Shown here piece by piece: positions 33,665 through 57,200 of a DNA stretch of 64,000 nt. The position numbers and the translations under genes are program-made. The notes beneath the pieces were generated by a model. The model did no database searches, was not told the DNA's origin, and worked only from the letters and a program-made list of their open reading frames with translations. This DNA is from a virus. How positions within the stretch are numbered: the stretch's first letter is position 1; each line of letters opens with the position of its first letter. Location of the stretch: IMG/VR virus record IMGVR_UViG_3300042387_000230, positions 3,248 through 67,247 of that record; one strand, given 5' to 3'.

Positions 33665-36600
33665 TTAGTACGTTAACTTGTATGAGATTTGGTCTGCGTT
33701 TAGTCTCTGAAGCAGGTCAGTGATTTCCGCAGAACTCTTAGTTTTGCTTAGTTTAGTTATATCAATAACCATAATTTTATCCCTTTCATCCTGAGACTCG
33801 GCTAGGCTTGGGTAGTCTATAGTTTTGCGGTCCTCGTCCATTTCCACTGATGACATAAACGCATATCCCTTTTTAGTCAGCTTATCGCTATGCAGGATCT
33901 TTTTGTCCGTTAGCTGGTTGGCAAAAGCTAGAAGTCCGGTAGCTAAATATCTACGCTGGTACTCTTCTTTAGTCTCTATATTGGCAATATACACCTGATT
34001 GTCTAGCAAGGGCCCATCCTGTATGTCTCCCCATTCGGTACTCATACTCGCTACGGCTTCGTCGGTGTTCCCAGCTAAATCATATGCCTTTACTTCTATG
34101 TAAGTCTGAATCTTTCCAGGCTCACCGTAGTAAAGTTCTTGTAGAGAAACAACACCTTCAAACCGGTACTGTCTACCATATCTGTCTTTATATGAAGCGG
34201 TCGTAGTGGTTTTAAAGTCACGGTAGTTAGGATTGTCGTATTCTTCAGTGATCGAGCCTTCCAGGTCTATTTTTAGACTCTCAGTGGCTTTATCCATTAT
34301 ATTATCTTCGCGCTTTTCAGGACGAGCAAAGTATGAACCGTAGTGCTCACGTCTAGTGGATTTTAGTTCTTTAACTCTATTAGAGTTCGATCCAAACTGC
34401 TTTTCCGCCTGCGCAATCATGTCTGCGTAAATTTGCATCATCTCTTCCTGGTAATCAAGAAGAGGTATGCCATATGGTCCAGAAGTAAAGTCGTATGCTA
34501 GTTCTTTGTCTAGGTCTAGGTTCGGGTCAGCCGGGTCGAAAGGCTCCCCACCAAACTTCATTAGAGATGGTCTAGAGTCGGTTGGCTTTTCTGGCTTAGA
34601 AAGCAGGTTACCAAACCGTTGAGCATTTCTATCTACTATAACGTCGTCAACAGTAGCCGGATATTCTAGATACAATCCCTCTGGACTAGTTACACGGCTT
34701 ATCGCTGTATATAGCTGTCCTGGAGCAAATGCTCCATCTTCTCCAAGGTCTACCTTCAAGTTTTTAATAGTCTTACCTTGAAGCTTGTGAATAGTAGCTG
34801 CCCAAGCTAGCATCAATGGAATTTGAGTAAACGTAGCCTCAGTTATGGGGCTAAGCTTGTTTCTCACCTGGTTACTAATGGCGTCAACGCGAGAAGCAAC
34901 GTTGTATCCCTTTTTCTCCCATTTTTCTGCACCTACATCATAAATATTGTCGCCTACCTTAACTCGTACAAAATTTTCTCCTAGGGCTACAACGGTCCCT
35001 ATGGTTCCATTTACCCATCTGCGAGTAGGTGGTACTCCTTGGCCAGACTCATTGTCCGAAGCATCCTTAGCATTTTTTTCGCTATCGTTTCTGGTAAACA
35101 TTACTCTAGCGCCCACCTTCAAATCTAACTGTACAGGGGACGGAAGGTTTTTACCAAAGGCCTTGGCTCCGGCTCCGTTAAACTCCCCAGAGTAGGTTCT
35201 AGCCTCGGCATTGCCTAGCTTTCTCATTTCTTCCTGATTAATTTCTTGCGCTCGCTTAGTTCTAGCAGTCGCGTAGATTAGGTCATCTACGGACTCTGGA
35301 ACGGTGCGCGATCCAGTAGCGTTCAAAAATTCAATATCATCCATAGAGAATCTTCCAACACGGATGTTGTTTAGGACTTTTTTAAATTCAGGGTCTGATT
35401 GACGGAACACTTGGGTAAGTTCATAGACTTCCAAAGGCTTGTCCATCCAGGCCCTGGCATCAAAGAAAAATTCGCTTCTATAGTTGTTTCTATTGTAAGA
35501 AATTGCCTTTTGATCTTCTTTGTCCACTACAGGAGGAAGCTGGTATACATCGCCAAAGCCAATAAACTGAACTCCACCGAATGGTACGAACGCTTTGCCT
35601 CTGACATACCTAAGAACTCTATCCATAGCGTCTAGTAGGTCTGCAGACACCATCGACATTTCATCAACTAGAAGAGTGTCCATAGCTTTCAAGACACTTT
35701 CAACTTTGTCTCTATACTTTCCAGGCTTTGGCAGTAGCTTTTCTACGTCACTTAATCCATAGACTACTCCTGGAGTTAAGCCAAATAAGGAGTGAATTGT
35801 GACTGCGCCAACGTTTTCTGCCGCGGCTCCGGTAGGAGCTGCAGCGGCCACGTTTTTCTCAGAATTGTCTCGAATAAAATTGAACAAACGAGATTTACCC
35901 GTTCCAGCCTTACCCGTAATAAACATAGAATTATTGCTAGTTTCTACGTGATTAAACAAAGCTTGCTGCTCCGCTGACAGCTCTTGAATATCTTTCTCGG
36001 TCTCTTCTCTTTCCATGTCAGTAGGTACTTGTACAGGTGTACCATCCAAATTATTTTTAGGTACGTACCCTTCTAATTTAGATTTGTCAAAGTTAGCAGG
36101 AATTTCAATGCCAGCTACTGGCTCGTCGTTAGCCATTCTTTTCTTTAGTAGGGCAGTAAGAAGTCTATTCTTTAGAACTCCAAGCAACTCGGCGTCTAGC
36201 CCCGGAAGCATGTCCCAGTAGTTCCTTGCATCCTGGTCAGAAATTACCCCCGGCTCTTGTATAATATCCTGCACAGTTCTAATATCATTTACCGTTGGGG
36301 GATTGACAGTCACCCTAGTTTCTACTGTAGGAGATGTATTTTCTTCTCCATCAGGGAACCTCATAAACTGAGGCCCCGAAGCGGGTACCTTAGTTCCGTT
36401 TAGGTAGTCTACAAATTGGTTTAATGTCATGTTGCCGATATTCTCAGGAACTGGAGCTACCTGACCTGGCTGAGTGTCTTCTATAGACTGGTTAGCTGCC
36501 CTTTTCTTACCAGGAGCAATTTTTTTAGCTTTTTCACCACTAATTTTTAAGATGCGAAGTGCGTCAAACTTAGCTAAGTACTCTACCAGCTCTCGGGTTC

Positions 36601-54200: not shown

Positions 54201-57200
54201 GATAGCGCCCTGAATTATTTTTCTGCCTTGAGCAGTAACTGCTCTTTCTCTCAGCGCATCGGCAAGCATTGCGTGCGTTTCATCTAGAATGGCTCTAATA
54301 ATTCCTAAATCAATCTGTAGACCAGATTTTAGAATGGTAGCAACTCGAGCATCCTCGAGAATTCTTACATCTTCGTCTAGGTTCTCTTCTTGTACTGCGA
54401 CTGGTCTGCCCTGCCCTACAGGGCTCATTAGTCTTTCGTAAGCTTGTTTATTGTTTGCCCACGTGTCGTAAGGCAAAATTAGTCCATAGATTGCCTCTAC
54501 ATACTTCCGCGCTCTAAGGTAGTCTTCACCACCGTCTATGTCAACTTTAGTAAACGCAACGTAGGCATCAAACGCATTAACTAGCCAGTCTTCCTGACCT
54601 ACTTTTTCAGGTCTAGGAGTGTAGCTCTCTAGAGTGAAGTTGTCGTCTTGGAATGCACGCCTGACAGCCGCTTCAATGGCGTCCTGGTTTTTGTACCAAT
54701 CTGGCAACTGCATACGGTCAATTGGGTACCCAAATAAAATAGCCTGGACTACGTTACCGCCAATGTTATCTGGAAGCAGTAATTTTTTGTCTCCTACGAT
54801 GGCCTCTATAGGAAATACAGTGTGATACGGAGTTCCGTAAAAAATGCTAAGATCGTTGCTTGCTATTTGTTCTCTGTCGTCTATAAGGTCGGGCTCGAAA
54901 GGCTTTGGTACAGGTCCGTAGAAAACTGGAACGTCATCCGCTTGATTGTAGGTCTCGCTGGTGCCGTCTTCAAACAATACAGCATAAAATCCATCTAGTT
55001 CACCAATGTAAGAAATGACCTTAGGCACGCCATTAACTACAACGCGATTGCCAACCTTGAGAATACCTGGGTTGACGTAATCAACATTTAGTGGCGACTC
55101 TGCTTCCGGCTCCTCGGTTGAATCTTCAGGAGCTGGCTGGTCGGCAACTGGAGTAGGCGCTGGCTCGGCTGTAGGAGTGGGGGTAGCAGGAGCCGCGTTC
55201 TGTATCGGGCCGTCTTCTAGCTTTCGAGTAGGGACGTAGTTTTCAGGCACAGCAATGCTGCCGCGTATGCTCTCTGGAATCTTGTCTAGAATGTCGTCGA
55301 TTGGCATCGAGTTGATGGTTCGATAGTCAAGCGCCGTCTGCCAGTAGCTGATTTCTCTAGGTCTTAAACTTTCGATTAAGTTTTCGCTTGCTTCTCGTGC
55401 AGTTAGGTCCGGCAGTTTACTAAGTATTTCTGCTATTTCTTTCTCAGACAATAGTCCAGGAGTGTTTACTACTCGCTCTATAGAAGACAGCTGACGAGGG
55501 TTAGCTCCGTCTTTACCTAAGTTGGTGTAGTATGTCAGTGGGTCTTGAGGCTGGTATTTGTCCTTGTACGGAGCTTCATCACCTTCGTTTATCCAGCTTT
55601 CTAGGGCCGCGCTTGTCATAGTGCGGAACTCTTCTTGGAAATTAGGGTAGTTTTTGTCCTGGTCATCTCCTTCGTCAATTAGATCTTGGAGTTTTCTATT
55701 TACAAGTATTGACTCAACCTTAACTATCTGAGAGGGAGTGGGTCGACGAGCGGCATCTACATCCGACTCCAAGAATTGAGGGACAGGCTCAAATTGGCCC
55801 TTCTTGTCGGCAACTTCCTGAGCTGTAATTTTGTCTTCAGCACGTCTGCCCCAGCCCCATGACGCGTTGATGTCCTTAATAATCTGCTCAACTTCAGCAC
55901 CTGGCAGGTTGTAAAGGCTGTCAAATATTTCTTTAGCTAGACCCTCTTGGCCGGCTGGCGGAGTACGTTTTGCTAGCTGGGCCAGCACAATTTGTCGTCT
56001 GCCAGGGGCGGCTTTTCCAATGTACTTTGGATATTTACCGTCTGGAGATCTCTCAGGGTTTTGAGGCTGCGTAGAGTTGATGATGTCCGCAAGTGCGGCA
56101 GCTTCAGCTAAGGTGTAGTTTTCTGGATTCAAATACATGTCGTCAATTAGGCGACCAATGCTTGGGTCATTGATAATGCTTCTATCGAAAGCCTGGTGGG
56201 TAGGCCCCGTAATTTGACGTGATAATTTGTGCTTAGTGTCATTTTTGTAAGGGCTTACGTAAGAAACTGGAGAATCGTCTGGGGAATTGCCAGCTTTCTC
56301 TAGACGATCTCTGTAATACTGAGCGTCTTCTTTAACTTTTGCCTTTAAATCTTCAAAGGCAACATCATCGCTTGGGGTAAATCGCATGAATGGCGGTCGA
56401 ACACTGTCCATTCCTTCGGCGTCCCAGCTGACGGTCGGCAACTGATTGTTAACAGAGGCAATGATATCTTTAACATCACTCCAGCTAAATCCAATACCGA
56501 TTGGCTCCATGTGCGTAGCAGACGCGGTTAGGTCATAAACGGTGAACGCGTCTTCAGCAATGGATGGCTCGTAAAAAAGAATGTCTTGACCATTAATGTC
56601 GTCAAAGTTGTAAACAGGAACAACGCTTACAGTTGCAGGGCCAAACGTAACGTAGTTATTGCCGTCCTTGCTCTGATAGTGGTTGTCAATGACTTTACCC
56701 CAGTCCTCTGGAACGTCAACATCAGGGTCAACAGGTACGTACGGCTCTTCTGGAGTGTCCTCTACTTCTGGCTCTTCCTGAGGTTCTGGCAACTCAGCGA
56801 CAGGGGTGCCAGACGTTGGCTCGTTCTCTGTGTCCGGGTAGTTGCGATCTTCCTGAGTAGCAAGTTGCTGAGTGGATGCCCAGTCTTGGGCATAACCAAC
56901 TACTTCTTCCTGGCCGCGCTTGCTTGAGATGAGCTCGTAGACTGGCTTGTCCGGGTTTAGCTGGTCAGTGCCAAACTGGCCGATAATCTTTGCGCCAAAC
57001 TTTTGCTGAGCTTCCGCAATGCGCTTCTGAAGTGCCTCGTCAGGTTTGTTGTACAAGCTAGCCTGGTAGCCGTCGCCGGTAACAAAGTTGCGGTTCGGCT
57101 TGACTTTGCTGGTTAGGCCACTTACTGTAGCTGCGACCTTAGTTGGGTACCAGCTGGTAGGAAGGTCCTTGCGCTTTAAATCTTTAATGTCAACAAAAGG

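Follow-up and report, generated by a model that had tools for sequence, protein, structure and literature searches.

The two giant proteins encoded in the head module of an uncultured lake phage, known from IMG/VR record IMGVR_UViG_3300042387_000230, share a recurrent tetrapeptide, hydrophobic-M-x-F, that appears to mark the boundaries between their modules. The stretch of the record analysed here (the window; 64,000 nucleotides, positions 3,248 to 67,247) takes up the greater part of a virus contig of 67,247 bp, with a CheckV completeness of 41%. The tag is confined to the giants in every phage examined, and comparison of sister phages suggests that, within a common form hydrophobic-x-x-(F/M/S), its letters are exchanged as a set between lineages. 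Since the same tag recurs between modules, and other tags stand at the same spots in sister phages, these tags look like cutting sites, and the tetrapeptide hydrophobic-[M/Q]-x-F is probably cleaved by some protease. A fuller reading is more tentative, and falls somewhat short of even confidence: the tag would be a lineage-specific processing signal that frees single enzyme modules from two capsid-loaded polyvalent proteins, with a built-in zincin doing the cutting.

Both giants have the makeup of polyvalent proteins, joining several unrelated enzyme or effector domains in one polypeptide within a phage head-module context. Giant A (4577 amino acids, aa) matches the Pfam families RNase_T, ADPrib_exo_Tox and PIF1 and the PHROG ParB-like and Dda-like helicase families, and giant B (3282 aa) matches Pfam RNase_T, UvrD, ArdcN and MPTase-PolyVal. 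The zincin-like MPTase domain of the class is represented by PF18818 in giant B and by two HEYGH zincins in giant A. The domain labels of the initial annotation therefore largely stand, with Pfam or PHROG matches for DEDDh/RNase_T, ADP-ribosyltransferase, ParB-like, PIF1, UvrD and ArdC-N plus MPTase, together with the zincin fold. The exception is the "GNAT" label given to residues 4280-4577 of giant A (33668-34561, minus strand), which have no Pfam match at E<=1; the label may still hold, and precomputed PF00583 and PF13880 matches in a distant relative (P0015) bear on it. Pfam (E<=1) and PHROG (1e-3) searches gave nothing useful for this segment, for the zincin segment and residues 1-268, 269-1769 and 3343-3678 of giant A, or for residues 1-555, 556-1366 and 2661-2813 of giant B.

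All 12 motif copies listed in the initial annotation translate as claimed on the minus strand, with coordinates recomputed from the ends of the open reading frames (ORFs; Table 1). M-x-[FY] occurs 14 times in the giants and is preceded by F, L or A at 12 of these (7/7 in giant A, 5/7 in giant B), the two exceptions in giant B, GSMAY at 1811 and RTMSY at 2105, both lying within the UvrD helicase match. Each giant was shuffled 20,000 times, and no shuffle reached the ten observed copies of [FL]M.F (mean 0.63, maximum 5), the 12 of [FLA]M.[FY] (mean 2.11, maximum 9) or the six of P.[FL]M.[FY] (mean 0.07); M.F by itself was mildly enriched (11 versus 5.49, reached in 453 of 20,000 shuffles). Because the motif had been defined after it was sighted, a blind search was also run over all reduced-alphabet 4-mers with low complexity masked, which ranked hydrophobic-M-[KR]-F first (6 versus 0.17, p 2.7e-8) and hydrophobic-M-x-F second (10 versus 1.38). 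The ten copies of [FL]M.F in the giants' 7,859 residues compare with one in the 15,096 residues of the 43 other minus-strand frames of at least 80 aa, and the motif is absent from the window's capsid protein, 1551-aa protease/scaffold protein, portal and Dps-like protein. Enrichment over both shuffled sequence and the other minus-strand frames was thus borne out for the two giants taken together. The sole [FL]M.F among the other frames, DLMEF, stands at residue 675 of a 904-aa tail-region ORF (7844-10558, minus strand).

The sites divide giant A into eight segments (268, 1501, 374, 783, 416, 336, 601 and 298 aa) and giant B into six (555, 811, 328, 966, 153 and 469 aa). None lies within a domain range matched by Pfam or PHROGs or folded by AlphaFold2 (AF2), an outcome with a chance of about 0.016 at 26% and 34% coverage, and the 19 residues upstream of the sites are 0.63-0.74 proline plus polar, versus 0.56 protein-wide, in agreement with the proposal that the copies lie in Pro/polar linkers. 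Mapping onto predicted structure bore this out in part: site A3 falls in an AF2 segment with a predicted local distance difference test (pLDDT) score below 50 (local residues 33-55), preceding the fold of the first zincin, but the model of giant A residues 2880-3720, which covers three sites (7-row alignment, mean pLDDT 32.5), is too poor to judge disorder, and the lack of secondary structure at those sites is not counted as evidence.

Conservation at the junctions was then as the cleavage-site idea would have it, with the methionine and phenylalanine kept behind variable linkers. Giant A was compared with six metagenomic homologues (56-67% identical; seven sequences with the window's), in which both residues are invariant at five of the seven sites. 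The linker upstream of each site is variable and rich in insertions and deletions, and the start of the next module downstream is conserved; at five sites the mean column identity of the 19 upstream residues is 0.58-0.73, versus 0.81-0.95 for the motif core. Where it varies, the motif methionine can be replaced by Q, T or A. In giant B the sites are kept in the IMG/VR relatives L002 (5/5) and L003 (all four covered by its contig). A Shine-Dalgarno (SD)-like 4-mer lies upstream of 1/12 motif methionines and 17/137 others, and codons at the sites vary synonymously, both of which indicate a signal read at the level of protein. Six of ten homologous giants (P0006, P0009, P0010, P0012, P0013 and P0015) begin M-D-[FY], a start that recalls the motif's M-x-F part. 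In the window's giants the start is V-S-N-[LF]. As the giants have homologous N-termini, the likeness may be fortuitous.

More distant relatives of giant B (41-52% identical over the N-terminal part) lack hydrophobic-M-x-F and carry other recurrent linker tags instead. Three sister phages (G001, G002 and G003), which share 73-75% capsid-protein identity with the window, were compared over the whole head module. The two giants of G003 contain [IL]D[KR]M[ASV] 15 times, versus 0.05 expected, and those of G001 and G002 contain [VI]EE[SM][SA] eight and ten times, versus 0.09 and 0.07 expected, with 0/1000 shuffles reaching the observed count in any of the three; a further relative, L005, has IEDM[SA]. 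No sister tag is found in any other coding-strand ORF of at least 150 aa, including the portal, Dps-like, protease/scaffold and capsid proteins. The replacement is clearest at site A5 (residue 3343), the best-aligned linker, where homologous flanks (HPYF.FN upstream and VWS[SG] downstream) enclose FMQ[YF] in the window's clade, VEEM[AS] in G001 and G002, and IDKMA in G003, in identical alignment columns. The G003 linkers at sites A6 (3679) and A7 (4280) hold IDKMA and IDRMA respectively. In giant B, the tags of different phages fall within the same linkers at sites 556 and 1367, where the linker alignment is loose, and the B2 linker reads IEDMS, IDKMV or VEESS in other lineages. Aligned by position, the tags have a hydrophobic residue first, then M/Q, D or E, then a variable residue, then F/Y, M or S. 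Such a lineage-wide swap at shared positions fits a single recogniser co-evolving with all of its sites.

A wider IMG/VR scan with a giant B N-terminal profile recovered 41 loci and suggested further candidate tags: [IM]IMDPP (4-5 copies versus 0.01-0.02 expected), P[IL][ILM]K[KR] (six) and P[IV]VD[RAK] (four). A P[AGS]D[hydrophobic] pattern in L030 was partly domain-motif-like and was left out of the tag count. The blind motif search gave no clear tag in DSL-LC01, P0012, P0013, P0016, P0019 or P0020, or in most of the distant B-type loci L041-L054. Searches of IMG/VR with P0001 and with an alignment found no A-type relatives, and tblastn of giant A residues 1770-4577 against cultured phages matched the helicase part only, with no cultured relative with virion proteomics in the collection.

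The gene layout suggests how such proteins might be used. On the minus strand the head module runs from the portal through a Dps/ferritin-like protein, giant B and giant A to the 1551-aa prohead-protease protein, the 676-aa capsid protein, whose N-terminal part is long and acidic, and on to the major tail protein and tape measure. Judging from their position between the portal and the protease and capsid genes, the giants would be made whole and loaded into the procapsid, then cut in their linkers either within the head or after ejection, to release exonucleases, helicases, an ADP-ribosyltransferase with its ParB-like domain, zincins and an ArdC module. The cutter would be a gluzincin of giant A resembling lethal factor (LF) and the PPEPs, acting on giant A in cis and on giant B in trans. 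As enzyme and sites would reside in the same gene products, with no other essential substrate, the code would be free to drift, and the sister phages would have rewritten it wholesale, as I/L-D-K/R-M-A/S, V/I-E-E-S/M-S/A and I-E-D-M-S/A. It is possible, if doubtful, that this amounts to a self-contained protease-and-site system, in which the embedded zincin cuts both giants and the four-residue code has been rewritten several times among sisters, the codes being hydrophobic-M-x-F, I-D-K-M-A, V-E-E-S-S and I-E-D-M-S, and perhaps I-M-D-P-P and P-I-I-K-K. In thermolysin- and LF-type zincins, substrate choice depends mainly on a hydrophobic S1' pocket, hence there is a weak preference for placing the scissile bond between x and F, with position 4 as P1'. 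Proline directly follows the motif phenylalanine at 2/12 sites, which is not decisive, as PPEP-type enzymes tolerate proline beside the cut.

The candidate enzyme is the first zincin of giant A (zincin 1). HEY[GA]H plus E.F[AS]E is present in all A-type giants examined. The AF2 model (11-row alignment, mean pLDDT 70.3) places HEYGH on a helix at 274-292 (pLDDT about 90) and ELFAE on a helix at 327-343, that is, the HExxH helix, downstream Glu helix and zincin fold of M34-like enzymes. In VIA-align the top matches were all zincins: PPEP-3 (Z 10.0, rmsd (root mean square deviation) 4.0, 173 aligned), lugdulysin (Z 9.6), anthrax lethal factor (Z 9.5, rmsd 5.1, 192 aligned) and PPEP-2 (Z 8.6), a Z of about 10 being slightly above the usual best background of 7-8. 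Foldseek against the PDB returned nothing at E<=0.001, the weak lethal-factor and collagenase rows reaching 3.3e-3 at best, and the ATLF profile PF07737 was unmatched at E<=1; ATLF and Wss1-like clusters in the ESM Atlas (score 0.92, about 150 shared features) are leads only. The model thus suggests that zincin 1 works like an M34 zincin, though for want of a profile match it is not filed as a member. It would share with the M34 gluzincins (PPEP and lethal factor) the HExxH and downstream Glu helix and its best structural matches, but differs from them in being embedded in a 4577-aa phage protein, with that protein's own linkers as proposed substrates. PPEPs themselves are endopeptidases that cut Pro-Pro bonds of adhesion proteins (PMC11460543). 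This zincin is favoured over the prohead protease as the cutter, as the better-fitting though unproven candidate, because the prohead protease and the putative capsid junction are conserved while the tags change, whereas identity over the zincin region amounts to only 23-29% between phages of different tags.

Several points weigh against this assignment. Firstly, the phage is uncultured: conserved M and F, confinement to the giants and sister tags in the same linkers support the core of the original idea, that these are recognition or cleavage sites, but the cutting itself is a prediction from sequence. Secondly, the sole Pfam match of zincin 1 at E<=1 is to DUF4344 (0.073), besides the empty Foldseek result. 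Thirdly, four A-type giants with intact HEYGH (P0013, P0016, P0019 and P0020) show no evident tag, and the G010 giant has one copy, hence a zincin does not imply a tag; conversely, G011 and G012 carry the IMDPP tag with no zincin match, on contigs 14-20% complete. Fourthly, the records behind the association of zincin and tag fall in few clades and are therefore not independent, and the giants are overall more diverged than the head-core genes, such that low zincin identity is unspecific. Fifthly, the B-type giants of G001, G002 and L005 lack HExxH, so cleavage in trans must be assumed. Finally, one motif-like copy lies outside the free linkers. At giant A residues 2452-2455 (40034-40045, minus strand), FTDY in the window, an additional FM[DQ]F is present in five of six homologues, about 25 residues past the zincin Glu helix and within a confident AF2 helix (pLDDT about 89). 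Instead of marking an open linker, this copy may act as a product-like or autoinhibitory element.

Other searches support the same association. HExxH occurs in 0/10 coding sequences of the DSL-LC01 head module, whose 3289-aa giant has no tag, and no zincin match was found in G005, G006, G007 or G009, which have a B-type giant without a clear tag, nor in G008, where the tag is unclear; in the same search the positive control G001 was matched, as was G010. A complex prediction of the zincin region (2144-2926) with the linker 4256-4300 scored 0.00 in a run without controls and weighs neither way. Searching 1.84 billion representatives with the zincin segment, phmmer gave eight matches, too few for a phylogenetic test of co-variation.

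It is unlikely, though an explanation to be taken seriously, that the tag is uncut and serves as a docking or handling motif, setting the spacing or orientation of the modules in an intact giant and read by one phage-encoded partner, such as the capsid interior, portal, a chaperone or the ejection machinery. Lineage-wide tag switching would also follow if such a partner co-evolved with the tag, and one motif-like copy does sit within a folded helix. Among the polyvalent proteins described by Iyer, Burroughs, Anand, de Souza and Aravind in 2017, P1 DdrB is cut, and N4 virion RNA polymerase, ArdC and TraC1 are delivered whole (PMC5512222). However, polyprotein sites are laid out in just this way, with one tag per boundary, five to nine in each giant, and every tag within a variable linker that immediately precedes a conserved domain; a docking signal could do without such repetition between all modules, and no candidate partner is known.

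Slightly less likely is cutting by the HK97/S78-type prohead protease of the neighbouring 1551-aa protein during head maturation. That protein matches the PHROG head maturation protease and portal-annotated families and, weakly, Pfam S78 (E 6e-4). Its gene adjoins giant A, and the giants' place between the portal and the protease and capsid genes suits such a role, as does the precedent, invoked in the initial annotation, of T4 gp21 and phiKZ gp175, which cut internal head proteins. The prohead-protease consensus is L/I-x-E for T4 gp21 and S/A/G-x-E for phiKZ gp175 and SPN3US gp245; in G001 and G002 the V/I-E-E tag comes close to the former, but the window's tag fits neither. Moreover, the tags are missing from the capsid, protease/scaffold, portal and Dps-like proteins of the window and all three sisters, and the protease region remains 61-94% identical (per 100-residue bin) between phages in which the giants' tag changes completely. 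A putative substrate is the capsid protein, in which the acidic N-terminal part meets the capsid fold at EQEEQAIVTASAEQPFEAPADRQPV, conserved as EQEEQA[IP]VTA[SA]AEQPFEAPADRQPV in the window, G001, G002 and G003 (looser in DSL-LC01). This junction may be cut by the prohead protease, at a motif of V-T-A-[AS] class that is unlike the giants' tag. Hence the precedent probably names the wrong class of enzyme, the motif being absent from head proteins and the protease conserved while the tags change.

It is improbable that, once the giants are ejected, a host enzyme such as a Prp-like cysteine protease cuts the sites. Phage 80alpha uses host Prp for its capsid and scaffold proteins. The Prp cleavage motif of ribosomal protein L27, MLxx(D/N)LQ(F/L)F'A(S/H)KK (PMC9405229), has the same hydrophobic-Q-x-F register in its (D/N)LQ(F/L)F'A core as one site of the giants, A3, which six homologues read as PLKLNLQEF (or LKLRLQKF, LKLDLQEF). 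However, A(S/H)KK follows the motif at 0/12 sites, the acidic sister tags at the same positions are unlike Prp sites, and PF04327 is unmatched in the contig at E<=10, though that contig is 41% complete. The host also appears to be an actinobacterium, as the GenBank phage relatives of the capsid protein are actinophages (805 records, led by Mycobacterium with 442, Gordonia with 198 and Microbacterium with 118), the best being Actinomycetia phage DSL-LC01 at 66%. Genomes of these relatives span 103-195 kb. Given that size and the contig's completeness, extra protease genes could sit outside the record.

Recognition by the beta clamp is very improbable. Q-[FL]-M-x-F is found at 5/12 sites and many of the modules are DNA enzymes, and described clamp motifs include Q-phi-x-[LM]-[FL], Q-phi-x-[LM]-x-[FL] and QTSMAF (PMC11139829). 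However, the giants' motif is one residue short of both clamp definitions, the glutamine is present at just those five sites, tags also precede the ADP-ribosyltransferase, zincin and C-terminal modules, and the tags at equivalent positions, IDKMA and VEES, bear no likeness to clamp motifs. It is hardly credible that the motif methionine is an internal translation start, or the motif a DNA-level recombination signal for module shuffling: there is an ATG at every site and modules differ among homologues, but the SD-like 4-mer counts and synonymous variation of flanking codons do not fit, conservation extends at the protein level to the residue before the methionine and the second after it, the methionine can be Q, T or A, and the sister tag VEES mostly lacks one. 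All three of these candidates were rejected: the host Prp site on the unmatched PF04327 and the mismatch to the L27 motif, the clamp motif on its spacing, and internal starts or a DNA repeat on the SD and codon counts.

The class to which cleavage of the giants would belong is already known, in the processing of packaged phage proteins and in polyvalent proteins; what is new is the tag itself, its restriction to the giants and its complete exchange for other tags in sister phages. T4/phiKZ-type prohead processing is the nearest proven system, and shares short linear motifs, several per capsid-loaded protein, as well as the release of fragments inside the head. It fails here in two defining features, as the tag is absent from capsid and scaffold and the protease is conserved as the tag changes, and the residues themselves, hydrophobic-M-x-F, also differ. 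The giants resemble polyvalent proteins in combining many unrelated conflict and DNA enzymes per polypeptide, in their place in a phage head module, and in having ArdC-N plus MPTase-PolyVal with extra zincins. Iyer et al. defined this class and proposed zincin processing with autoproteolytic release of domains (PMC5512222); outside its supplementary tables, that article was not found to give a cleavage motif or to assign sites to an enzyme. Unlike polyvalent proteins as described there, the giants carry an explicit four-residue boundary tag that is replaced in sisters, and the favoured enzyme is a Pfam-undetected LF/PPEP-like zincin instead of the PF18818 domain. The Prp site of L27 is alike only in register, at the one site where six homologues have LKLNLQEF or a near variant; it differs in the lack of a Prp match in the contig, the apparent actinobacterial host, the missing A(S/H)KK and the acidic sister tags. 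No description of linker cleavage motifs in phage polyvalent proteins was found among titles and abstracts of the published literature, and the motif's reported novelty holds within the literature searched.

The locus therefore supplies exact, conserved candidate sites, 12 in the window's phage and 8-17 in each of three sister phages, and the sister tags form a natural specificity-swap series that makes the 2017 processing hypothesis directly testable. If the built-in zincin is the enzyme, these tags would be ready-made orthogonal protease/site pairs, and would show a protease co-evolving with all of its substrates when they share one polypeptide; were the system self-contained, such natural orthogonal pairs would time the release of injected effectors. 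The annotation of such giant ORFs would change to polyproteins with defined mature products, including the ADP-ribosyltransferase, which earlier work on freshwater phages took for an anti-eukaryote toxin (PMC6802176).

Table 1. Positions in the window of the two giants, their tag sites, the candidate enzymes and associated features.
Feature	Coordinates	Strand	Remark
Giant A, 4577-aa polyvalent protein	33665..47398	(-)	ORF and translation
Site A1 LMAF, Met 269	46586..46597	(-)	M and F invariant in 7/7 aligned sequences
Site A2 AMSF, Met 1770, before DEDDh exonuclease	42083..42094	(-)	M and F invariant in 7/7
Site A3 LMKF, Met 2144, before zincin 1	40961..40972	(-)	LQ[EKQ]F in six homologues
Site A4 FMKF, Met 2927, before ADP-ribosyltransferase	38612..38623	(-)	M and F invariant in 7/7
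Site A5 FMQY, Met 3343, after ParB-like domain	37364..37375	(-)	FAEF in 2/6 homologues
Site A6 FMRF, Met 3679, before helical repeat and PIF1 helicase	36356..36367	(-)	M and F invariant in 7/7
Site A7 LMKF, Met 4280, before C-terminal 298-aa module	34553..34564	(-)	M and F invariant in 7/7
Zincin 1, giant A residues ~2160-2476, HEYGH at 40247-40261, Glu helix ELFAE	39971..40921	(-)	
Zincin 2, giant A, HEYGH (2716-2720) to ENFAE	39116..39253	(-)	H, E, Y, G, H invariant in 7/7
Giant B, 3282-aa polyvalent protein	48204..58052	(-)	ORF and translation
Site B1 FMRF, Met 556	56379..56390	(-)	FMEF in L002, FMRF in L003
Site B2 LMSF, Met 1367, before DEDDh exonuclease	53946..53957	(-)	LMEF in L002, LMAF in L003
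Site B3 FMAF, Met 1695, before UvrD helicase	52962..52973	(-)	FMEF in L002, FMAF in L003
Site B4 LMRF, Met 2661	50064..50075	(-)	LMQF in L002, LMSF in L003
Site B5 LMAF, Met 2814, before ArdC-N plus MPTase	49605..49616	(-)	LMAF in L002; L003 contig stops short of B5
MPTase-PolyVal zincin (HELTH), giant B, C-terminal to ArdC-N	48615..48950	(-)	Pfam PF18818, E 8.7e-29
Prohead-protease region, residues 823-1253 of 1551-aa head protein	29853..31145	(-)	rival candidate enzyme
Capsid-protein junction IVTASAEQP, residue 224 on	28127..28153	(-)	putative prohead-protease site
Arg-rich G-[RQ]-F-A-[EK] stretch	giant A ~47231-47299; giant B ~57426-57491; 1551-aa protein residues ~365-386	(-)	

Two further sequence features recur in these proteins. 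A roughly 65-residue helical module (...Q[IL].S[IV].RR...P.[LM]...L...L...W[RQ]...) is repeated in both giants, with copies at about 470-545, 1180-1250, 1665-1735 and 3700-3780 of giant A and 890-990 of giant B, not consistently beside motif sites. An Arg-rich stretch ending G-[RQ]-F-A-[EK] lies near the N-terminus of both giants and is also present in the 1551-aa protease protein. Across nine B-type giants its R188...G201, F203, A204, M206 and G207 are invariant, and the stretch may be a capsid-targeting signal.

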